Shown piece by piece: positions 34,641 through 64,000 of a stretch of DNA of 64,000 bases (the stretch's first letter is position 1; the number at the start of each line of letters is the position of its first letter). Origin of the DNA: Thermodesulfobacteriota bacterium (GTDB lineage: Bacteria > Desulfobacterota > Desulfarculia > JACQYL01). Where the stretch lies: positions 416,001 through 480,000 of the forward strand of contig CAXXLZ010000001.1 of NCBI GenBank assembly GCA_963675595.2. The letters are read 5' to 3'. The notes under the pieces are model-generated. The model did no database searches and was not told the origin of the DNA. It saw nothing but the letters and a program-made list of their open reading frames with translations. The position numbers were made by a program, and so were the translations under genes.

Positions 34641-34673
34641 TTTCTACCTCCCCGAGCTTGCCACGACGGACGT

Positions 34674-35246
34674 TCAGACGGTTTCCGCCGTTTCTTTACG
34701 CGTGCGTCCTTCATGAGTGCGTACGTATTCCGAGACTTCCACACGAACCCTTTCCGTAACCAGGTCCGCTTTGTCGATGAGCCACAAAGGTGCCGATGTG
34801 CCGGTCATGACCAATTCCACGTTTCTGGGTTTCGCTCTGATGAGGTCCTTGGTCTCCGATTCCGTGATCCAACCTGCCGTCAGGGCGTCCAGAACGCCGT
34901 CGGCTATGACGAGAGCGTAAGAGCCGGACTTCAGCGCTTCGATGAGTCTGGTGATGCCTTGATGGGGATTGCCGGAGGGAACGTCGCGGATATCGGGTAG
35001 GCTTCCCGGCAGGCCGAAAAGTTCGATTTTAATTTTGGGCAAAAGCTCTCGAATGGCCGCGTAACCATGAATTTCGTCGTGCCGGAAGCGGGCCATGAAG
35101 GTCTCGAAGCGGTAAGTGGACATTCGGACCGCCAAGCCGAAAATGGCCAGCGATTTCCCGTAGCCGCTTCCCATGTGTATCTGCGTGTAGCCTTGCCGGA
35201 TCTTCTTGGGAGGTCTTGATGGCTTGCGGTTGGGCATACTGTCCAT
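34674..35246 (-). CDS. CobA/CobO/BtuR-like cob(I)alamin adenosyltransferase homolog with degenerate motifs
   Basis: QGYTQIHMGSGYGKSLAIFGLAVR, YALVIADG, KPRNVELVMTG..AP..LIDKADLVTE. Confidence 0.7.
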   Translation of the reverse strand: MDSMPNRKPSRPPKKIRQGYTQIHMGSGYGKSLAIFGLAVRMSTYRFETFMARFRHDEIHGYAAIRELLPKIKIELFGLPGSLPDIRDVPSGNPHQGITRLIEALKSGSYALVIADGVLDALTAGWITESETKDLIRAKPRNVELVMTGTSAPLWLIDKADLVTERVRVEVSEYVRTHEGRTRKETAETV

Positions 35247-35865
35247 GGATTCTTCGTTTCTCGTGGGTTTTCGGCATAGCCGGCCGGTGCTCCGGCAAGG
35301 GATCGGGTTCTCCCGATGATTAATCGAAAGTCGCTTTGTTGCTTGAACGGTGGAGCGCCGACGGGTACAAAGGCCGCAGTCGGGGATCCTCGCTCGTTGG
35401 GTTCATGATCTCCCCGTATGTTCACCTTGATCGGACTCTCGACCGGAAGATTCCATCATCTCCGGCAAAGGTGCTTCCAAGAGAAGCAGCGGGACCGGGC
35501 AAGGATAACGAGTTCGCTGTTGAGCGCGAGGCAACAGAGGATTCTTGGATTACACGAGCGAAACATGCGGCAAAGATTTTTCTAACGTAAGGGTCGGAAG
35601 ACTGTCAAGAGAGTTGTATATTTTCCGGAACGGCAGGTCCCGCTTTGGCGAAAATCCTCGCGTCGGGCTTCGGCGAGGTAACGGATATTTTTCGCGACTT
35701 ATTGGTTCCGTAGCGCGGCTTCCGGGCCAAACACTTGATCGCCGAGAAGCCGGGCCTTAAACTCCCCCGAAGTACCGTCCGAGCGTATCGTCGATTGATG
35801 CGATAGAAGGGCATGAACGACGGCCCTCAATTCCTTTTGTCCTTTGGAACCCCACATGAGCCAAG

Positions 35866-37221
35866 ATGCGCTGTCTCTTTGTTAATCCACAAATCGGCGA
35901 CTTTTTCGAGGGGCTGACTCCCGGGCAGGTGCCCTTGCTCAAAAGGGTGGTGGCCGGCAGCAGAACGTTGCGGGAACGCCTCGAATTCAGCCGCAAAGCC
36001 CTGTCGTCGTTAGGACTCCTCACCGCGGCGACTGTGGGCTCCGGAGTTCGGCCCGGCGTACATTTCGACTTTATCGACGAGAATCTGGATGCGCGGGCGG
36101 TGGAAGACGAGCTCGAGCAGGGAGTGGACCTTCTTGCTCTGGGCGGTACCGTCTATCAGATGAATCGCATCCTGGCCTTGATCCGGGAAGCGGTTAAGCG
36201 GAAGATTCCCGTTGTGGTGGGCGGCGCTGCGGCGATGACCTTCCCGGACCTGTTTATGCGGAAAGGCGTCTCCGTCGTTCTTGGAGAGAGTGAGCCACTT
36301 TTCCCGGAATTCTTGACCGATTGGGAAAAGGGCGCTCCCAAAGGCAGGTACGAGTCGCATTCCAATGCCGGTATGGATCTCAAACACTCTCCCGTGCCGG
36401 ACTTCTCTCTGGCCGAGACGTACGACCACACCTTCGTCGGGATTCAGACGAGCCGGGGCTGTCCCTATCACTGTGAATTCTGTCAAGTCTCCGGGATGCT
36501 TGGAGACACCTACCGACGAAAACCCTTGGAGCGTATCGTGGAAGAAACACGGCGGGTGAAGTCTCTGTGGCCCGATGCGTTCTTTTTCTTCTATGACAAC
36601 AATTTTTTTGCCGACCGTGAGTTCGCGCGCGGTGTCCTTTTAAGTCTATCCCGCGAAGGCGTAAAGCTGGGGCGGTGGGGCACCAACGCCGACGCTTCGG
36701 TGTACGAAGACGGGGAGCTGCTGGATTTGGCGATGAGCCTCGGTCCTCTGGATTATCTGGGTATCGGGTTCGAATCTCTTTCCGGGGACAGCCTGAGCAC
36801 CATAAAGAATCGGAAGAAAGCCGGCCTTCTGAAGAAGTACGATGAGGTTGTAGCGGCCCTTAAGGCCAAAGGTGTGGGCGTTTTCGGATATTTCATGTTC
36901 GGGTTCGAAAACGGCACGGCGGGCGATCTGGAAGCGGCGGTCCAATTTATTCTTCATCACGATATTGACGCCCAAATCAGCCGCCTTGTTCCCATGCCCG
37001 GAACCCGTCTTTATGATCGACTACTGGACGAGGTCCGGGAACGATCCGGTGCGGTGAGCAGAGGGCCTTTAGGACGTTGGAATCAAGTGCGGGAATTGCT
37101 TCTGGAGAAGAGCGGCTTTACTTTGCTCGGCCTTACCGAGTTGCTGGCCGGAGCCTATGAACGGATCTACGACGATTCCAGGCGCGCTTCGGCTCTCCCG
37201 CTGCCTGCTCCCTTTCTTTGA
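35866..37221 (+). CDS. Cobalamin-binding radical SAM protein #1
   Basis: SLGLLT, IDEN, IPVVVGG (B12-binding domain); QTSRGCPYHCEFC; IGFES; YFMFGF. Confidence 0.9.
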   Translation: MRCLFVNPQIGDFFEGLTPGQVPLLKRVVAGSRTLRERLEFSRKALSSLGLLTAATVGSGVRPGVHFDFIDENLDARAVEDELEQGVDLLALGGTVYQMNRILALIREAVKRKIPVVVGGAAAMTFPDLFMRKGVSVVLGESEPLFPEFLTDWEKGAPKGRYESHSNAGMDLKHSPVPDFSLAETYDHTFVGIQTSRGCPYHCEFCQVSGMLGDTYRRKPLERIVEETRRVKSLWPDAFFFFYDNNFFADREFARGVLLSLSREGVKLGRWGTNADASVYEDGELLDLAMSLGPLDYLGIGFESLSGDSLSTIKNRKKAGLLKKYDEVVAALKAKGVGVFGYFMFGFENGTAGDLEAAVQFILHHDIDAQISRLVPMPGTRLYDRLLDEVRERSGAVSRGPLGRWNQVRELLLEKSGFTLLGLTELLAGAYERIYDDSRRASALPLPAPFL

Positions 37222-37257
37222 CGGCGCCGCCGCACTATCCCGTGTTTAGGAGCTGAA

Positions 37258-40200
37258 TTGCATTCGGACGAGGAACATTATCGCCGTTGGAAAGGGGAAT
37301 TGCAAACGGCCGAGGCCGTGGCGGTCGTGGGACTGGCCGCCCGGCTCCCCGGGGCTTCCGATATCCTGCGGTTCTGGAGGAACCTGGAGTCGGCCAGGGA
37401 CTGCATCACGGAAGTGACCCGTTGGAACCACGAATCGCTGTTTTCAACCAACCGGGAAGAGCCGGGAAAGACTTACTGTAAATGGGGGGGCTTCCTCGAC
37501 AGTGTGGACCGTTTCGATTCGGGATTCTTTCAGGTATCCCCGGCCCAGGCCCTCGAAATGGACCCAAGGCAGCGGCTGTTTCTGGAAGTCGCCTGGGAAG
37601 CCATCGAGAACGCGGGCATACCGGCGAGAGACCTCGCCGGCTCAAAGACCGGTGTGTTCGTGGGGGCTTCGAACAATCAGTACCTTCATCTATGGGGAAG
37701 CTCCGGTCTCGGAAGAATGAACGGTCTGGACAATACCGGCGCCGGTATCGCCAATCGCGTGTCCTTCTTCCTGGATTTGCGGGGACCGAGCACCGCGGTG
37801 GACACCACCTGCTCTTCTTCGATGACGGCGGTTCACACAGCCTGCCGGAGCCTGCTTTCGGGCGAATCGGAAACCGCGCTGGCCGGGGGAGTTCATCTGA
37901 ATCTTCTTCCGGAATATTACCTGACCATGAGCCGGATGCGCCTCCTGGCGTCCGAGGGGAAGCACCGGGTACTGGACCGACGGGCCGACGGCTTCATACC
38001 CGGAGAAGGCGTCGCGGTTGTGGTGCTCAAGCCGTTGGACCGGGCAATCCGCGACGGAGATACGATTCATGCGGTCATTCGGGGCTCGGCCGTGAATTAC
38101 TCCGGCAGGACGGGCCATTTGACGGAGCCGTCCCCGGAGGCCGAGAAGGAGGTGGTGGCCGAAGCCTTGGCCCGGTCGGATGTGGACCCGGAAAGCGTCT
38201 CTTATATCGAGCTCAACGGGGCGGGTACGGTCCTGGGCGATTCCGCGGAGGCCAACGCGCTTGGGGAGATATTCGGCGGGAATCGGAGCGGTCCCCTGTT
38301 CCTGGGCTCGGTGAAGAGCGGCATCGGCAACCTCGAGGCCGCCTCCGGCTTGGTGGGAATGATCAAAGTGATCCTGTCCATGCGTTTCCGAACCTTGCCC
38401 GCCATGCTTCATTTCGAGCAACCCAACCGGTTCGTTCGGTGGCGGGAGCTACCTTTTCAGGTGGTTTCGGAAACCGTACCGTGGGATGAGCGTTGTCGTC
38501 CCTTTCGTGCCGGGGTGAGTTCCTTCGGAGTGGGTGGAGCCAACGTACATGTCGTGCTCGAAGAGTGCCCCCGAGACATGGGAAACAAGGGACTCCCGGG
38601 CACCGTTCACCTATCACGGCCGCGTGAGGTTGATGAACGCCCCAGGCTCTTCGTCTGTTCGGCCCGGTCTCGTGAGGCGCTGAAACAGGGGCTGAGCAGA
38701 CTGTACCAAACGGTGGCGGAACGGATAGGCCCCGACGACCTTGGGAATCTGGCCTACACTCTGGCTGCGGGCAGGGAGCATTTCTCCCATCGTTTGGCCT
38801 GGGTCGTCTCCACCGGGGATGAGCTGCTTTCCGCCATGCGCCGATGCATGGAAACGGAAACATGGGAAAGTCTTTCCGAGGAGGAAGGGTGCTTTTACGG
38901 GGTGGCACCGACAACGAATACAAGGCGAAAAAAATCCTTCCCATGGATGGCCGAGGGAAAAAAGGAGGCGGCATCCGCCCGTCGTAACCCTGAGTTCGTA
39001 TTCGCCTTTGCGGCCTTCCGACCCGAGGATACGGCTTCATGGCGGGATGTGGAGTCTTGCGGAGCACCGGCTTGGATCCGCAAGTCCCTCATGGAACGGA
39101 AAGGCAAGGTGAACGCACTCCTGGACCGCTTTTTGTCGTCTGCGCGAGAGCGAGGCTTCACGCTTTCCAGCCAAGTCGCCGATAAGATCGAATGGGTGCT
39201 TCGAGGCATGGCGTTTCAGGAAACCGCAGCGCGCTTTCTATGGGAACTCGGTGTTCGGCCCGTCCGGACCGTGGCGGTCGGGTGGGGGGAATATGCGAAA
39301 CACTGCTTCGAGAATCCCGATGAATTGGAGACGATCTGCTCGGACTTGATGAACCGGGCGTCCTTGGACGAGCCGTTCATGGGAGAGTCCGATCCGCCTT
39401 TTGGTGTTTCCGACCCTGATGTTTTTGTTTTTTCGCCCGCATCGGTGCTTCGAGGCGGCGAGCTGTTGGGTCGGGCCGCCCGAGCCCACGTGCGGGGAGT
39501 GAGCCTCCGGTGGGAGTTGTCGACGGACGACGGTCTCAAACGCAAGTTGGCGTTACCCTCCTATCCTTTCGAGGGGCGGAGGTATTGGCCCGTTCCGGAC
39601 GGTGTCGAGCCGACAGGATCCGAGGCCTTGGAAGTCGGCGTGGAGAGGGAAGCGGCCGAGAACGCCAACCGCGCTTCGACGGATGTGGGGCCGGTTCGCT
39701 CCGAGGACCTTGCAGAGCGGATTAGTTCCGTTTTCATGCACGGCATGGTGGAGAAACTGGGCTTTCGCCCTGAAGAAATCGATGTGGACCGGCCGTTGGA
39801 GGCCTATGGATTCGACTCCATTTTCCTGGTTTCCTGCCTGGAGGAGTTGGAGCGGTCTTTGGGTGTGGTCATCAGCCGTTTCGAGGTCACGGATGCATCG
39901 ACTCTTCGGGGTATCGTGGAATGTTGCGTCTCCGTGGTCCTTCGGAAAAGTCCTGCTTCGGGCACCATTCGCCACACGTTTTCGGTGGGTACCCGCCGAA
40001 CCGATCGGAACGACTCCGAGGAGAGAATCGCAGTGGTGGGGATGGCGGGACGTTTTCCGGGAGCGGACGACCTGGACGAATACTGGGAGAACCTAATTTC
40101 CGCTCGGGAGTCCATTGTGGAGGTTCCACAGGAACGCTTCGACCTGTCTGCGCTCTACGACCCGGATTCCAGAAAGCCGGGGAAGACGGTCTCGAAATGG

Positions 40201-41307
40201 GCGGGGCTCATCCGGGATATCGATTCCTTCGACGCTGCCGGCTTCCACGTGCATCCCAGAGCGCTGCGGAGCATGGACCCGCAACAACGGCTTCTCCTAC
40301 AGGAGGCGAAAAAAGCCCTCACGGACGCCGGGTACGAGCCCGGAAGCGGTCTTCCCAAGCGAGTGGGTGTCTACGTCGGCGTGAGCGCCCATGAATACGC
40401 GTGGCGGCTGCTGCGCGACGGAAAGCCGCTGGATCATTACGCGGGTCTGGGAACGGCCCGATCCATGGCGGCGAACCGGATATCTCATTTCTTCGGTTTT
40501 ACGGGGCCGAGCCTCACCGTGGATACGGCCTGTTCCTCCTCTTTGGCCGCCGTTCACCTGGCGGTGCGGGCTCTGCAAAGAGGGGAATGCGACGTCGCTC
40601 TGGCAGGCGGCGTCAACTTGATTCTGGACCCGTCGGCGTTCTTGATCTTCAGCAAGGCGGGTGTGCTTTCCCCCTCGGGGAGTTGCAGGGTATTCGACGA
40701 CGGTGGGGACGGGTACGTGCGCGGAGAAGCGGCGGGCGTGGTGGTACTTGAAACTCTGGATCGGGCCTTGCGTAATGAGGACGGAATCCGAGGAGTGGTG
40801 CTGGGCTCGGCGCTCAATCATAACGGCGAAAACTTCAGCATCACCGCGCCGAGTCTCCGCGGGCAAATTGCTCTGCTGGAGGAGGTCTACGGAGGCACGG
40901 GCGTCGATCCGGGTTCGATTTCCTACGTGGAGGCCGGAAGCACGGGGAGCAGGGAAGGCGATCCTTTGGAGACGAGGGCTCTCCTCTTCGTGCTGGATGG
41001 GTCGTCGTCTCCCGTGTCGTGCGCCTTGGGGTCCGTCAAACCCAATATCGGACACGCCGAGGCGGCATCGGGTATCGCAGGGTTGCTCAAAGTACTGCTT
41101 GCCCTGCAACGAAAAACCATTCCGCCTTTAGTGATCCATTCGGCCATGAACCGGGCGATCGATCTTTCGGCTTCGCGATTGTTCATTCCGCATGGGCCTC
41201 TCGGGTGGCCCGTGGGCGAACTCCCGAGACGTGCCGCCGTCACTTCCTTCGGGTACGGGGGAGCCAACGCGCATTTGGTAGTGGAAGAGGCGCCGTCGGC
41301 CGACTGA
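37258..41307 (+). CDS. AT-less type I PKS-like protein KS-(AT remnant)-ACP-KS; both KS non-canonical
   Basis: KS1 DTTCSS / ELNGAGT / GIGNLE; LPSYPFEGRRYW linker; ACP GFDSIF (Ser 39817); KS2 DTACSS / EAGSTGS / NIGHAE; no GHSxG AT motif; TTG start with AGGAG SD. Confidence 0.92.
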   Translation: MHSDEEHYRRWKGELQTAEAVAVVGLAARLPGASDILRFWRNLESARDCITEVTRWNHESLFSTNREEPGKTYCKWGGFLDSVDRFDSGFFQVSPAQALEMDPRQRLFLEVAWEAIENAGIPARDLAGSKTGVFVGASNNQYLHLWGSSGLGRMNGLDNTGAGIANRVSFFLDLRGPSTAVDTTCSSSMTAVHTACRSLLSGESETALAGGVHLNLLPEYYLTMSRMRLLASEGKHRVLDRRADGFIPGEGVAVVVLKPLDRAIRDGDTIHAVIRGSAVNYSGRTGHLTEPSPEAEKEVVAEALARSDVDPESVSYIELNGAGTVLGDSAEANALGEIFGGNRSGPLFLGSVKSGIGNLEAASGLVGMIKVILSMRFRTLPAMLHFEQPNRFVRWRELPFQVVSETVPWDERCRPFRAGVSSFGVGGANVHVVLEECPRDMGNKGLPGTVHLSRPREVDERPRLFVCSARSREALKQGLSRLYQTVAERIGPDDLGNLAYTLAAGREHFSHRLAWVVSTGDELLSAMRRCMETETWESLSEEEGCFYGVAPTTNTRRKKSFPWMAEGKKEAASARRNPEFVFAFAAFRPEDTASWRDVESCGAPAWIRKSLMERKGKVNALLDRFLSSARERGFTLSSQVADKIEWVLRGMAFQETAARFLWELGVRPVRTVAVGWGEYAKHCFENPDELETICSDLMNRASLDEPFMGESDPPFGVSDPDVFVFSPASVLRGGELLGRAARAHVRGVSLRWELSTDDGLKRKLALPSYPFEGRRYWPVPDGVEPTGSEALEVGVEREAAENANRASTDVGPVRSEDLAERISSVFMHGMVEKLGFRPEEIDVDRPLEAYGFDSIFLVSCLEELERSLGVVISRFEVTDASTLRGIVECCVSVVLRKSPASGTIRHTFSVGTRRTDRNDSEERIAVVGMAGRFPGADDLDEYWENLISARESIVEVPQERFDLSALYDPDSRKPGKTVSKWAGLIRDIDSFDAAGFHVHPRALRSMDPQQRLLLQEAKKALTDAGYEPGSGLPKRVGVYVGVSAHEYAWRLLRDGKPLDHYAGLGTARSMAANRISHFFGFTGPSLTVDTACSSSLAAVHLAVRALQRGECDVALAGGVNLILDPSAFLIFSKAGVLSPSGSCRVFDDGGDGYVRGEAAGVVVLETLDRALRNEDGIRGVVLGSALNHNGENFSITAPSLRGQIALLEEVYGGTGVDPGSISYVEAGSTGSREGDPLETRALLFVLDGSSSPVSCALGSVKPNIGHAEAASGIAGLLKVLLALQRKTIPPLVIHSAMNRAIDLSASRLFIPHGPLGWPVGELPRRAAVTSFGYGGANAHLVVEEAPSAD

Positions 41308-41397
41308 ATGTGAGTCGCGCTTCCGCGGATCGAGGTGTTTCCCATGGACCGCAGCGGAAAAGCATCTCTGCGACTTTGAGGCAAAACGGAGTCCTGT

Positions 41398-42729
41398 TTG
41401 GTTGTTTTGCTGGTGAATCCCAACCGGGTTAAGCCTCTAGTCCCTCCGTTGGGACTGGAATACTTGTCCGATGCGCTGCGCCTTGCCGGGCACGAAGTGC
41501 TTTTCTTCGATCTGGGATTCCGGCCTCCCGCGTCTTTGTTCGAGCTGGTTCGGCGGAAGAAGCCTGACATCATCGGGGTTTCCATCCGAAACCTGGACGA
41601 CGTCACCCTGCTTCGGAAGCACAACTACGTGCCCGGCATCGTCCGTCTGGTGAGGGAACTCCAACGTGTCTCGGATGCCCGGATCGTTCTGGGGGGGGCC
41701 GGCTTCTCGATTCTACCCCGAGAGCTCATGGAAGTCACGGGTGCGGATTTCGGGATTGCCGGTGATGGGGAAGAAGCCATGGTGGGGCTTCTGAACGATC
41801 TCGGTCAACCGCAACATATTCCCCGGGTTTGGTTCCGGGAGGGTGGTCCTTCGGGGCCGGTCCGTTTTTCTTTCGAGGGGCTTTCCGGGTCCTGGGGAGC
41901 CGGTTGCTCGCCACGTTCACTGCTGGACTACGCAGGATATCTGCGTCGAGGGAGTTCGTGCAACGTTCAGACCAAACGAGGTTGCACTCACCGTTGTCTA
42001 TACTGTCCAGAGCCGCGTGTTATGGGACGGATGATGCGGCTGCGCCCCGCGGAAGCGGTTGCGGAGGAGTTCGAAATCCTCGCTTCCATGGGCGTCCGGG
42101 AGCGGGTCTTTTTGGTGGACTCGGAATTTAATCTTGTTGAGGAACATGCCCTGGAAGTCTGTCGGATTCTGACGGAAAGGGCCTCCGGGGTGAAATGGGT
42201 ATGTTCCATGACCCCGAAATACGTGACGGAAGAACTCATCGGCTTGATGAAACGGGCGGGTTGTGACATGGTGATTTGGAGCGTGGACTCCGTATCCGAT
42301 GCAACACTGCAATCCCTGAGAAAAGACGTAGAGGAGACGGATGTTTTTCGAGTGTGCGGCTGGTGCGAAAAGGCGGGCTTGCCTTATTGTCTGGCACTGC
42401 TGCTTGGCGGACCGGCGGAAACGCCGGACACATTGAAGGCAACCTTTCGGAACGCCGGGAAGACTCGGGCGGCGTTTATCGCCGTGGGTGTCGGCTTGAG
42501 AATCTATCCAGGTACCGGTTTGCACGAAGTGGCCTTGGCGGAGGGCCAAGTGACCCGAGAAACGGATTTCCTGCAGCCTGTGTACTATCGAGAAGCTTGG
42601 GTGCGCGACACGTTGATTCCTCTGGTTCGAACGCAGATCGCAGAGGAGAGAAGGGCGGTGATGTTCGGCTCTCGACCGGACGTGACGGTCGAGGCGGAGA
42701 TTCGGAAGGTTTATCCCGTGCCCTTTTGA
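41398..42729 (+). CDS. Cobalamin-binding radical SAM protein #2 (lipid-biosynthesis/TsrM-like N-terminus)
   Basis: LLVNPN..KPLVPPLGLEYL, IGVSIRNLDD, LGGAGFS, QTKRGCTHRCLYCPEP, VDSEFN, GLRIYPGT. Confidence 0.9.
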   Translation: MVVLLVNPNRVKPLVPPLGLEYLSDALRLAGHEVLFFDLGFRPPASLFELVRRKKPDIIGVSIRNLDDVTLLRKHNYVPGIVRLVRELQRVSDARIVLGGAGFSILPRELMEVTGADFGIAGDGEEAMVGLLNDLGQPQHIPRVWFREGGPSGPVRFSFEGLSGSWGAGCSPRSLLDYAGYLRRGSSCNVQTKRGCTHRCLYCPEPRVMGRMMRLRPAEAVAEEFEILASMGVRERVFLVDSEFNLVEEHALEVCRILTERASGVKWVCSMTPKYVTEELIGLMKRAGCDMVIWSVDSVSDATLQSLRKDVEETDVFRVCGWCEKAGLPYCLALLLGGPAETPDTLKATFRNAGKTRAAFIAVGVGLRIYPGTGLHEVALAEGQVTRETDFLQPVYYREAWVRDTLIPLVRTQIAEERRAVMFGSRPDVTVEAEIRKVYPVPF

Positions 42730-42821
42730 ACATGGTGTCGAACCGACCTGAAACAGTCCCCACCAGTAGATCCGAAGTATCCGACCGGACTGCCGACGGC
42801 CTCATCTGAACGGATTCAATC

Positions 42822-44351
42822 ATGATTCAATTCACTTCCTTGGTTCCCAGATGGATCGGTGGAACTTCGCTTTCTCTGGTGGTGCTGCGAAGTTTCCTGC
42901 TTCATCACATGCCTCGGTTGAACATCGGCTATGGAACCTATCTGTGCGACGACGATCCGGAGGAAATCCTCGCGGGCGTCTACTCCCCGGATACGCGGGT
43001 CTACGCCTTCTCGGCGTATATGTGGAACCTCGAACTCACCTTGGATCTATGCCGGCGTCTCAAAGACCGAAATCCTCATTGTTTCGCTTTGCTGGGTGGA
43101 CCCACCGCCTCCTTTTCAGCCGACGCAATCCTGTCCTCGAATCCGTGGGTGGACCTCATTGTCAAGGGGGAGGGAGAGCTTCCTCTGCTGGAGTTGATTT
43201 CACGCATGGACCGAGGGGAGGAGGATTTTTCCGACATTCCCAATCTCGCCTACCGCCTGGACGGCCGACGAGTGGACACCCCGGCCATACCCACCATCCT
43301 CAATCTCGAAGACCAGCATTATGCTTTGGACGTCGACATGTTCGCGGGTGTGTCCACGGTTTATTATGAGACTTCCAGAGGATGCGTGTTCAAATGCCGC
43401 TATTGTTCCTGGAACGTCAACCAGTCGGGGATCAAACGTATCCGGCCGTACCCTCTGGAAAAGGTGATGCGCGAGCTGAGGCTGCTTTTCCGGCAGGAGG
43501 GGCTGGAAATGTTGCTGCTCACGGATTCGAATATTCTCCTGGGGGGCGAGCGGACCAAAGCCGTCTTCTCCGAGATCAACGCGCTCAACCAGGGTCGTCG
43601 AAGCAACGGCCTCCCCATGGTCAAGATCAACTTTGAATTCAATCCGGAGCATCTTACGGACGATCTCCTTCCGGAGATCAAGAAACTGCATGTCGAGAAC
43701 TACCCCATAGGTCTTCAAAGCGTGAATAAGGAGGTGCTCACGGAGGCGGGCCGGCCTTTCCACAGGGATAAGTACCTCGATGGGCTGAACAGGCTGCGAG
43801 AGAAGGCTGGGGCCGCCGTTTTGGTGGAGATTATTTACGGGCTGCCCAAAGATACGTTGGAAGGTTTCAGACGAACTCTTGAGTTTGTCCTGTCGGAGTT
43901 GAAAGCGGAGCTTTTTGTTTGTTACCGGTACTCGGTGCTGCCGGGTTCCGAGTTCTGGGATCGGAAGGAGCGTTACGGAATCCGCCATCTGGACGCGCCG
44001 CCCTATACGATCCTGAGTTCGGACTCCTTCCCGGAAGAAGACTTGGAAAAGGCCCAGGAGTTGGTTTATTACCTTCAGATCATTTACCGGGTCTTTCGGA
44101 GCCTGAAAAAGACCGTGGAAAACTCCGTGGAGGGAGACAAGCTGCCGGTGTATGAAGCGATCATACGCCGGTTTTCCGACAAGTATGGCGAGATACTCCG
44201 CCCCAAACTGATCTATGACGACGGTTTTCTGGACGATGTGGCCCGTTTGCGTTCGCGGGAGTTTTCCGAAACCCGTCGCAAGATGCTCTCCGAGGCCAGG
44301 GAGATCGTCAAAGAATATGCAGCCTCCAGGGAGGCTGAACGGAAATCATGA
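42822..44351 (+). CDS. Cobalamin-binding radical SAM protein #3
   Basis: FSAYMWN, LLGGP, GEGE, YETSRGCVFKCRYC, IGLQS, IYGLPKDT. Confidence 0.9.
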   Translation: MIQFTSLVPRWIGGTSLSLVVLRSFLLHHMPRLNIGYGTYLCDDDPEEILAGVYSPDTRVYAFSAYMWNLELTLDLCRRLKDRNPHCFALLGGPTASFSADAILSSNPWVDLIVKGEGELPLLELISRMDRGEEDFSDIPNLAYRLDGRRVDTPAIPTILNLEDQHYALDVDMFAGVSTVYYETSRGCVFKCRYCSWNVNQSGIKRIRPYPLEKVMRELRLLFRQEGLEMLLLTDSNILLGGERTKAVFSEINALNQGRRSNGLPMVKINFEFNPEHLTDDLLPEIKKLHVENYPIGLQSVNKEVLTEAGRPFHRDKYLDGLNRLREKAGAAVLVEIIYGLPKDTLEGFRRTLEFVLSELKAELFVCYRYSVLPGSEFWDRKERYGIRHLDAPPYTILSSDSFPEEDLEKAQELVYYLQIIYRVFRSLKKTVENSVEGDKLPVYEAIIRRFSDKYGEILRPKLIYDDGFLDDVARLRSREFSETRRKMLSEAREIVKEYAASREAERKS

Positions 44352-45892
44352 AACCGGTTCTGCTCAACGCGATCATTCCCAAATATTTCGGCAGTACCTC
44401 CATTTCATTGGTGATGCTGAAAAGCTATGCGTTGGACAAGTTTCACAGGGAAGGACGGTACCGGGACCTGGAATTGAGAGTTGCCCGCCATTACTGCGAG
44501 GAGGGCGAAGAAGCCATCTTGGAGCGCATTCTCGCGGACGGCTCCGATTTCCTGGCCTTCGCCGTTTACCCCTGGAATCATGCCCTGGTTCGTAGTCTGG
44601 TATCGCGGATCAAGTCGGTTCGGGAGGAGGCATGGATCGTATTGGGCGGACCCTCGGTCACCTATGACGCCTCGCGAGTGCTTGCAGCATGGGACGGAGC
44701 GGACGTCGTTGTGCGAGGCCCCGGTGAAGAGACTTTTTCCCTGCTTCTGGACCGTCGCCTTTCCGGGCAAGGGATCGAGGGCGTGCCCAACGTGGTCTAC
44801 CGGAACAACGGAGCGGTGCTCGAAGCTCCCGTTGAATTGAATTTTCGTATCGAGGACCAGGAATACGAACTGCTTACCGAGGACCTGGAAGACCTGGATA
44901 TCGTCAACTACGATACTTCCAGGGGGTGCACCTTTCAATGCGGATATTGCGCCTGGAACGTGGACGGCATCGAGCCCAAGGGATTTCGTTTCTACCCAAT
45001 GTCCAAAGTAGGGCGGGACCTGGAAAAGATATTTAAATTGGACGCTCTCGAAAAGCTGCTGCTCAACGATTCGAACATCACGATTCGGGAGGAACGATGC
45101 ATCGAAGTGTTCCGGCTCATTCGGTCCCTTAACGAGCGGCGCCGTTTGGAAGGGAAGAATCAGGTCTTCATTGTGTTGGACCTGAATCCCCAGTACTTCA
45201 CGGATCGGATCATCGACGAGTTGAAGAGGATGCACATCGGGGTTCTGGGATTCGGATTGCAGACCATCGATTCGGAAGTCCTGGATATCGCCCACCGGAA
45301 GTTGGACCTGGAACGATACGTAGGGAATCTCCGCAAGCTGGCGGAGAAAAGCGGCATTCAGATCATCATCGAATTCATCTTCGGCCTTCCCGGCGATACC
45401 ATGGAGAAGTTTCGCAAGAACCTCGAGTTCTTCTTCGAGGAGCTCGATACTTTCAGTTTCATCAGTTTTCGGTTTCTCCTGCTTCCCGGCTCCCCCTTCT
45501 GGCGAGAGAAGGAACACTACGGCATCGTACACTCACCCGAGCCGCCGTATGACGTGCTGTCCACACCCACATTCTCCGCCGAAGAAATGGACTATGCGGA
45601 TTGGCTGTCCTCCTGGTTCGAGATCTTCTTCAGTATTTTCCGAAGCGTGAAGAAGACCGTTGACGCTTCGGCCAAAGAGAATGGTCTGTCACGGGTTGCC
45701 GTTTACGAAGCGTTGTTTGAACGTTTGTCCAAGAACTACGAATGGTTTTTCGATAAAGGGTGGAAGCAGGAGCACACCTACTACTATATCGAGAAGATTC
45801 GCGAACGGGAAAACGCGGCCGTTCGACAGGGGATTTTGGCGGATTCCAGGCGGGTCCTTAAAGATGTTGTAAAGACTCTAAACGTGCGGTAA
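44348..45892 (+). CDS. Cobalamin-binding radical SAM protein #4 (paralog of #3)
   Basis: FAVYPWN, VLGGP, GPGE, YDTSRGCTFQCGYC, FGLQT, IFGLPGDT; ATGA-coupled to #3. Confidence 0.9.
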   Translation: MKPVLLNAIIPKYFGSTSISLVMLKSYALDKFHREGRYRDLELRVARHYCEEGEEAILERILADGSDFLAFAVYPWNHALVRSLVSRIKSVREEAWIVLGGPSVTYDASRVLAAWDGADVVVRGPGEETFSLLLDRRLSGQGIEGVPNVVYRNNGAVLEAPVELNFRIEDQEYELLTEDLEDLDIVNYDTSRGCTFQCGYCAWNVDGIEPKGFRFYPMSKVGRDLEKIFKLDALEKLLLNDSNITIREERCIEVFRLIRSLNERRRLEGKNQVFIVLDLNPQYFTDRIIDELKRMHIGVLGFGLQTIDSEVLDIAHRKLDLERYVGNLRKLAEKSGIQIIIEFIFGLPGDTMEKFRKNLEFFFEELDTFSFISFRFLLLPGSPFWREKEHYGIVHSPEPPYDVLSTPTFSAEEMDYADWLSSWFEIFFSIFRSVKKTVDASAKENGLSRVAVYEALFERLSKNYEWFFDKGWKQEHTYYYIEKIRERENAAVRQGILADSRRVLKDVVKTLNVR

Positions 45893-45989
45893 CGACGGCT
45901 GATCGTCGACGGTCCACTGGCGCGGTTCGATCCCTGAAGGATCGAAATCCGGATCGTACGGTGCCGACACTCATTCGGGAGAGAGGAAC

Positions 45990-46397
45990 TTGGAAGTCAG
46001 GTCAAGAGAGGAAATTCTCGAAGAACTCAAGCTGATCATCGCGGAGATTACCGGTTACGATCCCGAGGAACTCCATGAAGAAGATTCTCTCAGCGAGGAC
46101 ATCGGCATTGAGTCTTTTGATATTGTGGACATCAACTTTCGGGTGGAGGAAACGTTCGGGGTCGAAATGGGGGACAAGGTATTTTGGAATTTCCGAGACT
46201 TGTTCGGAGACCCCGATCTCATAGACGAAAACAACAATCTGACCTTGGCGGGAATCCAAGAGGTGAAGCGGCGTGTGCCCAATCTGGATCCCGATGGGAC
46301 TTTAGAAAATCGGGGAACGGTCAATTTCTCGGATATGTTGGCTCAAGTGAAGGTGCGGCATTTCGTCGATTTCCTCGAACAGAGTCAACGCGGGTGA
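45990..46397 (+). CDS. Long (135 aa) acyl carrier protein with insertion
   Basis: DIGIESFDIVDINFRVEETFGV around the Ppant Ser; ~50-aa insert before the last helix; TTG start with GAGG SD. Confidence 0.85.
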   Translation: MEVRSREEILEELKLIIAEITGYDPEELHEEDSLSEDIGIESFDIVDINFRVEETFGVEMGDKVFWNFRDLFGDPDLIDENNNLTLAGIQEVKRRVPNLDPDGTLENRGTVNFSDMLAQVKVRHFVDFLEQSQRG

Positions 46398-46662
46398 CAA
46401 CTCGAATCCTCATGGGAAAATCACCTTGGGATGGAATTTCCGAGAGCCGGTTCCGGTAGACCTTGCCGGGCAATCAAAGGCGCTCTTATGGAGGCAAAGT
46501 CGTTCATGCGAAGTTTTGGCCAAGAGCGTTGCCCAATGGTGCCCCGACTCTTGTCCGGCTTGAGAGGCTTCACGTCCTTCCCCGCTTTCGGACTCTTATG
46601 GATGGGGCCGGCGGCCGAGCGTGCGCTTCGAGCTCTTCTTTTCGAGGACCTTTCGCGTGCCG

Positions 46663-47793
46663 ATGAAAGCTGAAGACGTTATCCAAGAGGCTCGCGATAC
46701 AGCGGCCTCGCCTTATGCTCGGTTCCGGAAGTCCCTTCCGGAAGGGCGAAAGCCCATGGGCTACGCTTGTCCGTTCATTCCCGAGGAATTGATCCATGCG
46801 GCGGGGATGCTTCCTTTGCGAGTCTATGGCCGAAGCGCCGATTTAGGGGGGGCGGACCGATACCTTCCCAGCCAGTGCTGCGAGGTCGCCCGCGCCATGG
46901 TAAGTTCCGTCGCCGGGGGAGAACTTCGGTTTTTGGAAAGCATGGTCTTCGGCTTCTGTTGCGACACCATACGGGCCGCGGCCGGGACCTTGCAGGCCCG
47001 ACCTGGATTTGAGACGTTCTTTCTCAATATTCCCACAAGACTCAACGGTCCGGGCGTTCGGGACTATCTGGTGCGTGAGATTGCGGCGTTTGGGACGAGT
47101 ATGGCGGTCCGGCTGGACTTGAAGCCGGATCCCGAAAAACTCCGATCCTCGATATGCGTCTACCGGGAAAACGACGCTCTGCTCCATCAACTCCGGCGGC
47201 TGAGGTTGGAGAAGCCCCGCGCCCTTTCCGGATCCGACTATGTCGCTCTGACGGTTATGGGACAGGTGATGCCGAAAGAGGAGCACAACGAAAGGCTGAG
47301 CGTGCTTTTGGAGGCGTTCCGTTCCGGCAAGGAGTTCAACGAAACCGGAGGCGGAAAACGCGTTTTGGTTGCGGGCCTGCTCAACGGCAATGTGGAATAC
47401 CTGAGGCGTCTCGAGTCCCTGGGCCTGGATATTGTGGACGACGATTTGTGTGAAGCGTCCAGGAGTCTCGCAGAGGAAACGCCTGCCGAAACGGATCCTT
47501 TGTATTCCGTGGCGGATCGGATCCTCTCCAGATACTGCCCCGTGAAAATCAAGGACGGCCTGGATTCGGCGACCCTATGGGCTGAAAAGTGCTCGCGCAG
47601 CGGGGCGGAGGCCGTGGTCGTGTTCCTTTTCCGCTTTTGCGATCCCCAATATATGGAATATGCCACGGGCAAACCGGGATTGAAGGAACGAGGCATTCCC
47701 TGCGCCGTCGTGGAGGTGGGGCTGGACGGAATGGGCGGCGGCCAGGCGGATACCCGTCTGGAGGCATTCATTGAAAGCCTCGGAAGCCAATGA
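46663..47793 (+). CDS. 2-hydroxyacyl-CoA dehydratase / benzoyl-CoA reductase family subunit (HgdB/BcrC-like)
   Basis: GYACPFIPEELIHAAG, SQCC, CCDTIR, VDDDLC, FCDP, TRLEAFIE. Confidence 0.85.
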   Translation: MKAEDVIQEARDTAASPYARFRKSLPEGRKPMGYACPFIPEELIHAAGMLPLRVYGRSADLGGADRYLPSQCCEVARAMVSSVAGGELRFLESMVFGFCCDTIRAAAGTLQARPGFETFFLNIPTRLNGPGVRDYLVREIAAFGTSMAVRLDLKPDPEKLRSSICVYRENDALLHQLRRLRLEKPRALSGSDYVALTVMGQVMPKEEHNERLSVLLEAFRSGKEFNETGGGKRVLVAGLLNGNVEYLRRLESLGLDIVDDDLCEASRSLAEETPAETDPLYSVADRILSRYCPVKIKDGLDSATLWAEKCSRSGAEAVVVFLFRFCDPQYMEYATGKPGLKERGIPCAVVEVGLDGMGGGQADTRLEAFIESLGSQ

Positions 47794-47955
47794 TCATTCG
47801 GATGAAAGTATTCCAAAGCCGGCGGTGGTTTTCTTGGGACGTTTGCCGGTGCGGCGGGGTTTCAGCCAGGCCGGCGCCGCGAGAGACCGGTCCGGGGGGT
47901 CGGTAGGGCATCCGCGTGGAACCATCGGCAAATTGTTGGTCACTGAAATGGGCTT

Positions 47956-49296
47956 TTGGTGACCGGAGAATTGGAAAAAGTGGCGGCAGGTAATAAGCGA
48001 CAACGAAAAGAGCCGGGCAAAAGGGTGCCGCAAGCTCCTCTATTCCTTCTCAACGACCTGTTCACCCGGTACTATCGAACTTTGAAGAAGGCGGACGCCA
48101 ACGGCCGTCTTGTGGCTTGGAGCGCCTTGGGTTTCCCCAAACACGTGCTTTTCGCCCTGGGCATGATTCCGGTGTATCCTCAATTTCATGTGGCGTTTCA
48201 GTCGTCCAGGGGGCTCACCGGCCGGATCATCCGAGACGTCGAGGGAAGGTACGAGATTCCCCACGACATCTGCGGTGAGGTCAAATCCATGATCGGCACG
48301 ATCCTCAACGGGGAAAAGCTGGCATTCAAACTTCCCGAACCCGACCTCATCGCGTCCTGCAACAGCACGTGCGGCGCGACGGCCAAGGGCTTTCAGTTTC
48401 TACGAAAGCATCTGGGAATCCCGCTCTATTTCTGTGACTATCCGTGCGTTACCGACTCGACACCGGGAGCCCACTCCCTCCGGTACGTTCGGGACCAGAT
48501 CGACGCCTTCGTCCTTTCCGCGGAGGAGGCCCACGGAGTCCGATTGGATCGGAAGAAGTATCGTCGGATTCTCTCGCAGGATTTCATGGCCCTGGAAATC
48601 TGGACGGAAATCGTGAAACTGTGCGCCCGCAAGCCCGCTCCCGTGGACGCCATGGACCTGTATTTCTTCATCCTGCCGTTTTTTATCATGGAATTCGAAA
48701 ACGACGACTTTCTCGACCTCTTGATCCGGTTGTACAACGACCTGTACCGCAGGTGCGAGGAAAGCTCCGGAGAGTCGACGGGGAAGGAAATTCGGCTTCT
48801 CTGGGACCTCCTCCCCGTTTACCACAAGACCGGTTTCTTCAAGAAAGCGTTCGCCGAGCATGACGCTTCGGTGGTCATGTCCACGTATCTCACGGGGGCC
48901 CTGGCCTACCCGGACGGTTTCGAGCCGAAATACGGTTTTCCTCTGAAGAAGGAAGCCGTGGCATCAACCCTTCAGGCAATTCCGGATGAAGAGATTGCGG
49001 ACCGACTGAACTATTCCCTGGTCCATGACGGCAAACTTCCTCTGGAATTTCGAAAGCATAAGATTCGGCGGATGATTTCCGACTTCGCCATCGACGGGGT
49101 GGTGATGCATATGGATCGAAGTTGCCGGCCGGTGTCCCTTCCCCAGTTCGAGCTGTGTCGGTATGTCGAGGAAGACCTGGGAGTTCCCGTATTGCTCTTC
49201 GACGCCGACAGTATGGACGAACGTTATTTTGCGGGAAACCAGGTGCTCACAAGGATCGAAGCCTTCATGGAGCGACTGGCGGTGAGGAAGGAGTGA
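47956..49296 (+). CDS. 2-hydroxyacyl-CoA dehydratase / benzoyl-CoA reductase family subunit (HgdA/BcrB-like)
   Basis: PVYP, DICG, LPEPD, NSTC, DGVVMH..RSCRP, DSMDER, TRIEAFME; exact start uncertain. Confidence 0.85.
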   Translation: MVTGELEKVAAGNKRQRKEPGKRVPQAPLFLLNDLFTRYYRTLKKADANGRLVAWSALGFPKHVLFALGMIPVYPQFHVAFQSSRGLTGRIIRDVEGRYEIPHDICGEVKSMIGTILNGEKLAFKLPEPDLIASCNSTCGATAKGFQFLRKHLGIPLYFCDYPCVTDSTPGAHSLRYVRDQIDAFVLSAEEAHGVRLDRKKYRRILSQDFMALEIWTEIVKLCARKPAPVDAMDLYFFILPFFIMEFENDDFLDLLIRLYNDLYRRCEESSGESTGKEIRLLWDLLPVYHKTGFFKKAFAEHDASVVMSTYLTGALAYPDGFEPKYGFPLKKEAVASTLQAIPDEEIADRLNYSLVHDGKLPLEFRKHKIRRMISDFAIDGVVMHMDRSCRPVSLPQFELCRYVEEDLGVPVLLFDADSMDERYFAGNQVLTRIEAFMERLAVRKE

Positions 49297-49357
49297 ACCC
49301 GCTTAGAGGCACACGTTCGTCGCGAACCGTTTTCCGTTGTGTCGGCAAGGGGTTGTG

Positions 49358-50725
49358 ATGAGAATGCTTTGCATCTGCCCCGGGGTTTCCCGGGCGTACA
49401 TGGCCCATGTGCGTTCCATCGCCCGAAGGGGTTGGGATCATGCGGCGTTCTTAGAGAGGGACGTAAAGCGCCACGGCCGGCATGTGAAGCGTGTGTTTTA
49501 CGGTCTGGGCCTGCTCACGCTGGTTTCTTCTCTTCCCCAAGGAACCGATGTCGTCTTCGTGGACGAGAACCTGGAAAAGGGTCCTTTGGAGACGATTTAC
49601 AGGGAGGACTACGATCTCGTGGCTCTCACGGGACAAGTGATTCAGGCGGAACGAACGCTGGAGCTGGCGGCTCGGTTTGTTGAGCGAAACATCCCCGTGG
49701 TGGTGGGAGGCGTGCACGCCTCCGTCTTCCCGGAGGATTACGAGGCGTTGGGCGTATCCGTGGTGTGCGGGGAGGGGGAAGGCCTGTTCCAGGAATATCT
49801 GGCTGATCTGGAACGGGGTGAAACACGTTCCGTCTATCGAAAGGACCCCAAGGACTGCGTCGACCTGTCCACGATTCCGGATCCCGTGTTTTCCCATGTC
49901 TCCGGGAACCGCTACAGTTTGATGGGGGTGCAGACCACGCGCGGATGTCCTTACCGGTGTCGCTACTGCAATGTCTCCGCCATGCTGGGGGATCGCTATA
50001 GGCATCGACCGGTGGAGCGGGTTCGACAAGAAGTCGTTGAAGTCAAACGGCGATGGCCGGACGCCATGTTCTACTTCTTCGACGACAACCTTTTCGCAGA
50101 TACGGAATATGCGCTCGAATTGTTCGAATCTCTGGCGGACCTGGATCTGGGAATCTGGGGGACTCACGCGGACGTTTCCATTGCGGAGAACAAGGAGTTG
50201 CTTCGTCTGCTGACACGAAACGGCAGACCTTTCCTGGCTATTGGATTCGAAACGCTTTCGGAGACCAACGCCAAGGCTCTGGGGAATCCGGTCAAGGCCG
50301 GAGCGGTAAACGACTTGGGCCGTCGTGTGGACAAGCTACGAAACGCGGGAATCGACGTGGGGGGGTCCTTCATGTTCGGGTTTCCGGGAGACACGGCGCG
50401 TGAGCTGGAACGGATCGTGAGTTTTGTTCAAGAACACGGGATTCGAGGCTATATTACCCGATACTCGGCCATACCGGGTTCCGCCATGTATGAGGATCTG
50501 GTCCGGGAAATCGAGGATGTCCGGGGACCCATTCCGGTTCACGGCACCGAGCGGGCCCGGCTGGTCAATGAGTACCTCGGAGAAACCGTGTCCGATCAGC
50601 GAACGGACTCGGAAGGCATGATCGTCGATGCCTTGAAAGCGGCCTACGCCAAAGAACTCCCTCTCTCCCAGATCGACGCCCTGGCGGTGTATCGGTGCTT
50701 CTTCGAATCTCCGGGTCATGGCTAA
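49358..50725 (+). CDS. Cobalamin-binding radical SAM protein #5 (paralog of #1)
   Basis: LGLLTL, VDEN, IPVVVGGVHAS, GEGE, QTTRGCPYRCRYC, FDDN, IGFET, SFMFGF. Confidence 0.9.
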   Translation: MRMLCICPGVSRAYMAHVRSIARRGWDHAAFLERDVKRHGRHVKRVFYGLGLLTLVSSLPQGTDVVFVDENLEKGPLETIYREDYDLVALTGQVIQAERTLELAARFVERNIPVVVGGVHASVFPEDYEALGVSVVCGEGEGLFQEYLADLERGETRSVYRKDPKDCVDLSTIPDPVFSHVSGNRYSLMGVQTTRGCPYRCRYCNVSAMLGDRYRHRPVERVRQEVVEVKRRWPDAMFYFFDDNLFADTEYALELFESLADLDLGIWGTHADVSIAENKELLRLLTRNGRPFLAIGFETLSETNAKALGNPVKAGAVNDLGRRVDKLRNAGIDVGGSFMFGFPGDTARELERIVSFVQEHGIRGYITRYSAIPGSAMYEDLVREIEDVRGPIPVHGTERARLVNEYLGETVSDQRTDSEGMIVDALKAAYAKELPLSQIDALAVYRCFFESPGHG

Positions 50726-52416: not shown

Positions 52417-52429
52417 ACCGGGGGAATCC

Positions 52430-53383: not shown

Positions 53384-53394
53384 CGGCGAGGTCC

Positions 53395-58751: not shown

Positions 58752-59073
58752 GGCGAGGACGGAAGAACGTCCGAGCCTGTCATGAGTTCGCTGCACCCCC
58801 GATAGGATGCGCGTTTGGGTCGTCCTTGGACGCTTCCATGAGCCTCGTCCTCGATTTGGAGCCTCGGTCCCGTGAGGGCGGGCCATAGTCCCCGTCCTGC
58901 GCGCAAGAACACACAGATACCGAGAGTCCCCTTAGGATACGGCGGAGTTGGGAGAACAGTCACGATTCCGGCGTCCGATTCTTTCCTGATGGATGTTTCA
59001 AATGTATTATTCCCCGACCACTCCGTGGACGCGCACCTGAAAGGGTTCATGGCAAGCTGTGGTGAGGTCATCC

Positions 59074-63623: not shown

Positions 63624-63675
63624 AATACTTCCCGCGGCGTATGGGCAAAAAGGGAGTGGTCGATTGAAACGAGGT

Positions 63676-64000
63676 ATGGAAACGGCCCGTCGTTTCTTCC
63701 GTAGCTTCGGCGAGGAACTGGTCATCGGAGGCGTTCCGGCTTCCGAAATCGCGGACATGGCCGGCACCCCGTGTTATGTCTATGATTTGGATCTGATGCG
63801 GCGGAATCTGGAAGGATTGCGGGAAGGATTGGACCCCGCCGTCGAGATTTTCTATTCCGTCAAAGCCAATCCGGCTTTGGCTTTGTGCCGGGAATTCGCG
63901 AAACTCGGCCTGGGGGCCGAAGTGGCCTCGCTTGGAGAACTGGAAACGGCGCTGGAGGCGGGATTCTCTCCGGATCGTATCGTGTTCGCAGGTCCGGGAA
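63676..64000 (+). CDS. PLP-dependent type III decarboxylase (LysA/BtrK-like); partial, runs off the window and is not in the ORF track
   Basis: Manual translation from ATG 63676 (GAGG SD): ...GTPCYVYD...IFYSVKANP...GAEVASLGEL...IVFAGPG. Confidence 0.85.
   Translation, partial: METARRFFRSFGEELVIGGVPASEIADMAGTPCYVYDLDLMRRNLEGLREGLDPAVEIFYSVKANPALALCREFAKLGLGAEVASLGELETALEAGFSPDRIVFAGPG

Follow-up and report, generated by a model that had tools for sequence, protein, structure and literature searches.

Five class B radical S-adenosylmethionine (SAM) enzymes, a type that depends on cobalamin, are predicted from one gene cluster of a Thermodesulfobacteriota bacterium. The cluster lies in a 64,000-nucleotide stretch of the genome (contig CAXXLZ010000001.1, positions 416,001 to 480,000; hereafter the window, C1:416001-480000), and its five open reading frames (ORFs) with B12-binding and radical SAM domains, r1 to r5, occupy positions 35866-50725 of the + strand. 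Judged by their sequences, r1-r5 are intact class B radical SAM enzymes and fall into three subfamilies, namely r1/r5, r3/r4 and r2, with cobalamin binding predicted. We assign a probability of about 0.55 to the reading that all five are functional and carry out separate steps on carrier-bound intermediates, with r3 and r4 acting as methylases; the individual steps are much less sure.

Five radical SAM genes of three subfamilies

The five genes are:

35866-37221, + strand: r1, 451 aa, class B radical SAM, r1 lineage of the r1/r5 family, CPYHCEFC at residue 199
41398-42729, + strand: r2, 443 aa, class B radical SAM, related to TsrM and TIGR04072
42822-44351, + strand: r3, 509 aa, class B radical SAM, TokK/CysS-like architecture
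44348-45892, + strand: r4, 514 aa, class B radical SAM, sister paralogue of r3
49358-50725, + strand: r5, 455 aa from ATG, class B radical SAM, r5 lineage of the r1/r5 family

The original prediction, made from the letters of the window, had placed five such enzymes at these positions in a 2+2+1 paralogue pattern, and both the ORFs and Pfam bear this out. The Radical_SAM domain (PF04055) exceeds its 29.5-bit cut-off in all five proteins (57-77 bits; r1, 57), and the B12-binding domain (PF02310) exceeds its 32.1-bit cut-off in four, namely r2 (69.2 bits), r3 (42.2), r4 (51.4) and r5 (47.7), with r1 just below. The CxxxCxxC motif is present in each, at residues 199 (r1), 196 (r2), 188 (r3), 194 (r4) and 204 (r5, counted from TTG 49337, where its longest ORF begins). 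Across the 6.79-Mb genome the B12/radical SAM model matches about 30 places at E<=1e-3; random placement would put about 0.07 of these in 15 kb, so the occurrence of five is not due to chance, with the caution that another locus of this genome also contains five radical SAM ORFs (see below).

Pairwise blastp reproduces the proposed pattern. r1 and r5 share 40.1% identity over 382 aa (E 4e-87), aligning from residue 33 of r1 and thus spanning the N-terminal domain; r3 and r4, whose genes overlap by 4 nt, share 34.6% over 515 aa (E 1e-111); the remaining eight pairs show 21-27% identity (E 7e-5 to 8e-19). With TsrM as its nearest solved relative and 21-27% identity to the other four, r2 is the separate subfamily it had been taken for. 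The quoted motifs can be read in the translations: WPDA.F.F.D.N.FAD.E.A and WGT.AD.S in both r1 and r5, together with the insert ahead of LGLLT, a stretch of about 35 residues present in both, and TS.SLV.L.S, C.WNV, LLL.DSNI and FRS.KKTV in both r3 and r4.

Old duplications kept as separate lineages

Searches and trees indicate that the r1/r5 and r3/r4 pairs are old duplications whose members persist as distinct orthologous lineages. In a set of 5.8 billion clustered proteins, r3 has 14 full-length orthologues at 48-61% identity, all metagenomic and without informative names; r4 has 7 at 46-57%, and r5 has about 30 full-length relatives at 37-59%. A single relative, from the r5/r1 searches, bears a name, that of a Desulfobacterales metagenome-assembled genome. 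In quick maximum-likelihood trees, with SH-aLRT as one support measure, the r1/r5 family forms a single clade (34 rows, support 100) that contains an r1 clade (8 rows, support 100, best orthologue 61%) and an r5-type clade (24 rows, support 99) with several sub-lineages inside. The r3/r4 family is likewise a single clade (28 rows, support 98), in which 14 rows form the r3 group and 10 the r4 group, both falling together with row P0015 (support 97), and a third lineage contains a stand-alone paralogue of the same genome. The CxxxCxxC motif is kept in every full-length member (r1, 8/8; r5-type, 25/25; r3, 15/15; r4, 9/9), which argues against decayed copies.

Within the genome, each member of the r1/r5 and r3/r4 pairs has its partner as best match by bit score, in line with the proposal that the pairs are closest relatives; r3 is 35.9% identical to the third paralogue on C2 over 432 aa and 34.8% identical to r4 over 511 aa. 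The notion of duplicated and diverged pairs is therefore sustained as to paralogy, and a recent duplication is not, since r1, r5, r3 and r4 represent four old lineages with their own orthologues. Separate retention of these lineages implies that each of the radical SAM enzymes, its activity being predicted, most likely has its own step.

The third member of the r3/r4 family (L169:9916-11361, - strand; G000:C2; 481 aa, with 36% identity to r3) is a solitary gene flanked by chemoreceptor and formate-dehydrogenase-like genes, and groups in the tree with the single r3/r4-type gene of a metagenome locus, L091, described below. A formate-dehydrogenase-like gene (L169:11883-14702, + strand; G000:C2) consists of two in-frame ORFs split by a single TGA (...CART-TGA-HAPTV...), which has the appearance of a selenocysteine codon and not of an interruption. 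The r4 clade also has a member (46% identity to r4) on a 7.4-kb metagenome contig (L089:2073-3713); carrier-protein genes are missing from its surroundings, where DUF4143/AAA and CO-dehydrogenase-type flavoprotein and 2Fe-2S subunits are encoded, and the r4 lineage is thus not confined to the cluster.

Family placement and fold of the radical SAM enzymes

None of r1-r5 reaches a curated NCBIfam cut-off, so that, as anticipated, none is assigned to a characterised or housekeeping subgroup. Sequence comparison places r3 and r4, as new and remote members, in the class B branch that is TokK/CysS/KedN5-like. Their scores against the KedN5 family (NF033712) are 103.5 and 106.8 bits, outside the 700-bit limit of membership, and the best solved matches of r3 are TokK (7kdx, E 9e-24) and CysS (9n1b, E 8e-18). 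An AlphaFold model of r3 from a 16-sequence alignment (pLDDT 91.8) has CysS (TMq 0.79) and TokK (TMq 0.75) as best folds in the Protein Data Bank (PDB), both with a Foldseek probability of 1.00. The modelled whole chain has the TokK/CysS-type architecture of B12 methylases, with an N-terminal B12 domain, a radical SAM barrel and a helical C-terminal domain in common; the assignment is one of fold only, methyl transfer being a candidate activity. r3 and r4 are shorter than TokK and CysS (about 510 aa versus 624-681 aa).

The PDB titles of the CysS and TokK structures list pantetheinylated substrates. The C-methylation suggested for the cluster is plausible for r3/r4 because the best structural matches of the r3 model are these two enzymes; for r1, r5 and r2, the best matches include non-methylases. 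Pantetheinylated substrates would also fit a carrier-tethered substrate in the cluster of r3. TokK and ThnK are described in part of PMC9358933 as sequential methylases of carbapenem C6. CysS methylates an alkoxy group in cystobactamid, and the cluster described here also encodes an O-methyltransferase.

Thienamycin biosynthesis uses three enzymes of this kind, ThnK, ThnL and ThnP, and had been offered as a precedent. The parallel is apt for the enzyme class and fails for the pathway: in a Pfam scan of the cluster and its neighbourhood, covering 38 gene products, no carbapenam-forming or cystobactamid-pathway family is detected, and the sole trace is a chance-level Asn_synthase match (E 0.052) in the PP-loop protein listed below.

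r2 appears to be a divergent relative of the TsrM/TIGR04072 branch. Its nearest solved structure is TsrM (6wte, E 7e-40), and its best family is TIGR04072, the 'lipid biosynthesis B12-binding/radical SAM protein' (Kuste2803 type) of ladderane-type clusters, at 297.9 bits (297 bits in the genome scan), below the membership cut-off of 360. Both r2 and members of that family adjoin ketosynthase (KS) and acyl carrier protein (ACP) genes. Passages in Rattray 2009 (PMC2649909), in a review from 2026 on radical SAM enzymes that modify lipids (PMC13459092) and in a survey of biosynthetic gene clusters of the Cariaco Basin (PMC9902471) concern separate 'ladderane-type' clusters and treat the function of this family type as not known. 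The identifier 'TIGR04072' itself was not found in the literature, supplements left aside.

A genuine TIGR04072 gene (400.6 bits) is present elsewhere in the genome (L170:6907-10413, - strand; G000:C2 about 2958906-2962412); directly behind it come a FabF-like KS of 402 aa and a KS-like ORF of only 279 aa. The arrangement resembles the KS/chain-length-factor-like pair of ladderane clusters as portrayed in part of a preprint (bioRxiv 10.64898/2026.05.19.726425).

r1 and r5 form, on present comparisons, a family with no characterised close relative. The top NCBIfam matches are TIGR04072 and HpnJ for r1 (67.8 bits each) and TIGR04072 for r5 (86.8 bits), and those of the pair include HpnJ and BchE; among solved structures, r5 is nearest to MgmA (9ccb, E 4e-11) and then CysS, with AprD4 among the matches. 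A second radical SAM locus of the same genome (G000:C2:1581160-1604535, - strand) contains five ORFs of 909, 517, 476, 499 and 515 aa, all with CxxxCxxC and 25-28% identical to r2/r5. Five-fold radical SAM clustering thus occurs twice in this genome.

Carrier proteins and ketosynthases

The carrier machinery comprises two polyketide synthase (PKS) proteins, a separate ACP and a 4'-phosphopantetheinyl transferase (PPTase), with active-site residues of the KS domains given in brackets:

37258-41307, + strand: PKS1, KS(Cys, Asn, Asn) - linker - about 290 aa without Pfam match - ACP - KS(Cys, Gly, His)
59059-62067, + strand: PKS2, KS(Cys, Ala, Asn) - about 240 aa without Pfam match - ACP - GNAT
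45990-46397, + strand: free-standing ACP, 135 aa, Pfam PP-binding 36.9 bits
50718-51422, + strand: Sfp-type PPTase, Pfam 4PPT_N 77 bits and ACPS 44.1 bits, overlapping r5 by 8 nt

The carrier context that had been assumed for the radical SAM enzymes is thus found, with three ACP domains and an in-operon Sfp-type PPTase by Pfam. What the original prediction overlooked is that the PKS proteins are unlikely to perform normal chain extension. The histidines of a KS drive decarboxylative condensation. In alignments to the trans-acyltransferase (trans-AT) bimodule PDB 7zma, the active-site Cys is kept in all three KS domains. The position of the first His is taken by Asn in KS1 and Gly in KS2 of PKS1 and by Ala in the KS of PKS2, and that of the second by Asn in KS1 and in the KS of PKS2, KS2 of PKS1 keeping it, so that none has the complete Cys-His-His triad. 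Among the ORFs examined, Pfam finds no AT (cis or stand-alone; Acyl_transf_1 likewise absent), ketoreductase (KR), dehydratase (DH) or enoylreductase (ER). Because the KS histidines are lost and no AT is detectable, normal chain extension by PKS1 or PKS2 is not expected, and both look like thioester-handling scaffolds rather than chain extenders.

No Pfam family is found in residues 530-835 of PKS1 or 500-745 of PKS2. For residues 537-825 of PKS1 the Atlas gives an AT-like lead with a score of only 0.83-0.86, and no GHSxG motif is seen there; the stretch of about 290 aa is possibly an AT remnant. The closest parallel is provided by the non-elongating KS0 modules of trans-AT PKSs (best PDB match, the 7zma bimodule), which have the same AT-less KS-linker-ACP-KS layout, a retained Cys and a lost His of HGTGT. 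Unlike in those systems, all three KS domains here are non-elongating by this measure, and in the absence of AT, KR, DH and ER no elongating module is visible.

Other genes of the cluster and its flanks

The remaining annotated genes are:

34674-35246, - strand: ATP:corrinoid adenosyltransferase (CobO/BtuR type), Pfam CobA_CobO_BtuR 86.6 bits
46621-47793, + strand: HGD-D beta subunit (HadC/BzdN-like), Pfam HGD-D 189 bits; HadC 3o3m_B E 7e-33, BzdN E 1e-29
47956-49296, + strand: HGD-D alpha subunit (HadB/BzdO-like), Pfam HGD-D 172 bits; HadB 3o3m_A E 1e-32, BzdO E 2e-21
51427-52416, + strand: N-myristoyltransferase (NMT)-like tandem GNAT acyltransferase, 329 aa, no Pfam match of its own
52367-53383, + strand: PP-loop ATPase, weakly like the WbuX N-acetyl-sugar amidotransferase (TIGR03573 52.7 bits versus a cut-off of 203), weak PP-loop Pfam matches
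53380-54447, + strand: class I SAM O-methyltransferase, Pfam Methyltransf_2 81.9 bits
54452-55594, + strand: acyl-CoA/acyl-carrier dehydrogenase, three ACAD Pfam domains
55732-57300, + strand: acyl-AMP/CoA ligase 1, Pfam AMP-binding 216.9 bits
57303-58247, + strand: amidohydrolase_2 family protein, Pfam 117.1 bits
62064-63623, + strand: acyl-AMP/CoA ligase 2, Pfam AMP-binding 219.4 bits; TIGR03098 224.4 bits, below cut-off
63523-64000, + strand: start of a pyridoxal-phosphate (PLP)-dependent decarboxylase that continues past the window, complete at L181:1524-2981, Pfam Orn_Arg_deC_N 135.2 bits

The HGD pair shares with (R)-2-hydroxyisocaproyl-CoA dehydratase HadBC and the Bzd-type benzoyl-CoA reductase subunits BzdNO a two-subunit HGD-D composition, and it keeps cysteines that align with those of HadB and HadC. 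It differs from both in its setting within a carrier-protein cluster, in having no adjacent activator ATPase and in its NCBIfam scores, which lie far under the equivalog cut-offs (144 versus 750 and 111 versus 700). Several further HGD-D pairs are encoded in the genome. The dehydrogenase at 54452-55594 has acryloyl-CoA reductase as best NCBIfam match (267.6 bits versus 640), followed by cyclohexane-1-carbonyl-CoA dehydrogenase.

The structural model of ORF 51427-52416 (pLDDT 93.8) matches NMT folds over the whole tandem GNAT at TMq 0.71-0.78 and E ~1e-17, with 7-11% identity (Foldseek). Compared with the eukaryotic NMT it is bacterial and smaller. Its family is small, with 47 representatives in 1.84 billion at E<=1e-3; in 29 distant relatives NMT/GNAT models match 13, 12 and 11, with NMT in 13/29 and Acetyltransf_9 in 12/29.

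The corrinoid adenosyltransferase gene, divergent from r1 across a 620-bp gap, may serve cofactor handling for the B12 enzymes, a link that is positional only. Three flanking uncharacterised ORFs have no Pfam family. At the other end, the ligase/PLP decarboxylase duo (window 62064-64000 plus L181:65-2981) resembles the exosortase-A-system-associated pair of NCBIfam below the cut-offs; the decarboxylase scores 375.9 bits versus 478 for TIGR03099 and 291.9 versus 297.9 for LysA. Beyond the window it is followed by DUF481 and then by HlyD/ABC/2x FtsX (MacAB-type) exporter genes.

Conservation and rarity of the cluster

On comparative sequence evidence the r1-r5 cluster is rare yet conserved, and operon-like. 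From r1 to the amidohydrolase all genes are co-directional with spacings of -50 to +223 nt. Between HGD-beta and the amidohydrolase, the metagenome locus L091 runs collinear with the window, its genes showing 39-59% identity, in the order HGD-beta (end), HGD-alpha, r5-type, r3/r4-type, r5-type, r5-type, PPTase, homologue of ORF 51427-52416, PP-loop, O-methyltransferase, acyl-CoA dehydrogenase, ligase and amidohydrolase (start). Its visible part thus has three r5-type genes and one r3/r4-type gene; this differing radical SAM set means that the paralogue count varies between versions of the cluster. Orthologues of r3, r4, r5 and r1 show recurring, identical longest-contig sizes (54857; 36350; 190240; 138768/138797; 23801; 23145; 110141), which we read as a sign of co-location.

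With ORF 51427-52416 as a marker, none of the 94 other genomes of the class (95 including its own) matched at E<=1e-15. r5 matches 25 of 401 sampled genomes of the phylum at E<=1e-50, and no r5 orthologue occurs in the 400 other genomes, the best matches having 34-40% identity and being no closer than r1; the best r3 match among 40 relatives has 29-32% identity. Contigs were scanned by pattern as well, a procedure from which orthologues could escape. r3-specific patterns matched 50 stretches of genome contigs, none related; alignment patterns matched at least 596, of which 585 were related, the best 80 at 24-32% identity. Among metagenome contigs at least 595 stretches matched, 527 of them related, and among the matches listed only L089, L090 and L091 exceed 31% identity. 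The r3-r4 DNA stretch is present wholly or partly in nine sequencing runs from three studies, with no RNA run listed. No description of such a cluster was found in the literature, supplements left aside.

Signals of regulation were sought in the window. A scan of 34500-47000 returned 8 promoter-like sites (3.3 expected) and 12 terminator-like sites (16.6 expected), nothing usable, and Rfam has no match in the whole window, hence no cobalamin riboswitch.

Proposed pathway and alternative explanations

In the reading that we prefer, the in-operon PPTase would prime the three carrier domains, and the two AMP-forming ligases would put carboxylic acids onto carriers. The Cys-only KS domains would relay thioesters instead of extending a chain. 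A 2-hydroxyl group could be removed, or saturation adjusted, by the homologue of acyl-CoA dehydrogenase and by the HadBC-like pair, the latter helped by an activator from elsewhere in the genome. r3 and r4 would methylate unactivated carbons of a pantetheine-tethered intermediate, like CysS and TokK, and r1, r5 and r2 would contribute additional alkylations or rearrangements by radical chemistry. An amine supplied by the downstream PLP decarboxylase may then receive the acyl group from the NMT-like GNAT, from the GNAT domain in PKS2 or from both, and the product might be O-methylated or amidated before export through the MacAB-type pump. Such a product would probably be heavily methylated and made without oxygen. 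The earlier idea of successive modification of carrier-bound intermediates is plausible in this light, given the three ACP domains, the PPTase and the fold match of r3 to CysS/TokK. A bolder version is speculative and rather doubtful: a carrier assembly line free of Claisen extension, in which up to five radical SAM enzymes grow and branch the skeleton by single carbons, a ketyl-radical dehydratase reshapes it and the NMT-like GNAT hands it to an amine.

Several observations weigh against this reading. Every chemical step in it is drawn from distant homology, r3 being only 17-19% identical to CysS and TokK, and r1, r5 and r2 are without a close characterised relative, their best matches mixing non-methylases (AprD4, HpnJ, BchE) with methylases. 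The B12-binding score of r1 is 27.6 bits (E 2.8e-6), just under the cut-off, and a precomputed B12 match is absent in some r1 orthologues. No HGD activator (BcrAD_BadFG) is encoded within the window, all 10 genome matches lying elsewhere. The upstream half of the cluster (r1, PKS1, r2, ACP) is seen in this genome only, L091 starting inside HGD-beta, and the loss of KS histidines is likewise known from this genome only.

The strongest alternative takes most of the five as non-methylases acting on a tethered substrate by ring formation or contraction, 1,2-shifts, dehydration or C-C coupling, with the HGD pair as a benzoyl-CoA-reductase-like ring reductase and a carbocyclic product. HpnJ and BchE among the NCBIfam matches of r1/r5 and AprD4 among the solved matches are in keeping with it, as is the proximity of r2 to TsrM, BzaD and TIGR04072, the last proposed for cyclisation in part of PMC2649909. 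The HGD subunits also match BzdN and BzdO, and cyclohexane-1-carbonyl-CoA dehydrogenase is the second-best match of the dehydrogenase. However, r3, and r4 through paralogy, has the methylases CysS and TokK as best matches in both sequence and fold, and the HGD pair scores higher against HadB/HadC than against the reductase subunits, all scores remaining far under the family cut-offs. We regard this alternative as a real possibility of lesser weight. That r3+r4 and r1+r5 form obligate heterodimers, the other option in the original prediction, with one subunit catalytic and the other a scaffold, is unlikely. The 4-nt overlap of r3 and r4 suggests coupled translation, and the orthologues of the two have two longest-contig sizes in common (138797/138768 and 23801); yet CxxxCxxC is conserved throughout the orthologues of all four proteins, r1 and r5 lie 12 kb apart, several contig sizes occur with r3 but no r4 orthologue in searches limited by word sharing, and L091, as far as it is visible, carries a single r3/r4-type gene against three of r5 type. 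A complex prediction for r3 (1-495) and r4 (1-500) from separate alignments scored 0.00 and counts neither way.

It is very improbable that the locus is catabolic, serving to degrade an aromatic, alicyclic or branched acid under anaerobic conditions, with the radical SAM genes as accessories. Ligase, HGD-D pair, ACAD and amidohydrolase_2 do resemble anaerobic degradation modules, of which the other HGD-D pairs and the 10 activator matches in the genome may be further signs, but the PPTase, three carriers, KS domains, O-methyltransferase, GNATs and adjacent exporter indicate biosynthesis, and the cluster is absent from the related genomes examined. Least probable of all, and scarcely to be expected, is a cluster for a ribosomally synthesised and post-translationally modified peptide (RiPP) as the target of the radical SAM enzymes. 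Peptides are substrates for many enzymes of class B, and RiPP methylase models of NCBIfam match weakly (TIGR03975, 59.4 and 43.7 bits; ApyD, 35.7-52.9 bits). Against this, no plausible precursor ORF is seen in the two largest intergenic gaps (35250-35865 and 46398-46620), Pfam finds no peptidase or RiPP recognition domain, and carrier machinery dominates the locus.

Significance

Methylation or rearrangement at unactivated carbons, with no need of oxygen, is the chemistry of class B radical SAM enzymes, only a few of which are characterised. To our knowledge, characterised clusters hold one to three of them, and five from three subfamilies in one cluster would be unusual. The cluster offers a compact set for the study of new radical C-C chemistry on tethered substrates and for a test of the role of Cys-only KS domains, and its old, retained paralogue lineages are a natural experiment in the divergence of substrate and site specificity within the class. 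If the assembly line without Claisen extension were true, it would amount to a radical route, anaerobic throughout, that leads to a branched lipid-amide and in which the number of radical SAM paralogues, five here and four in the visible part of L091, sets the alkylation pattern. The cluster may also bring to light a novel natural product or surface lipid of an anaerobe.

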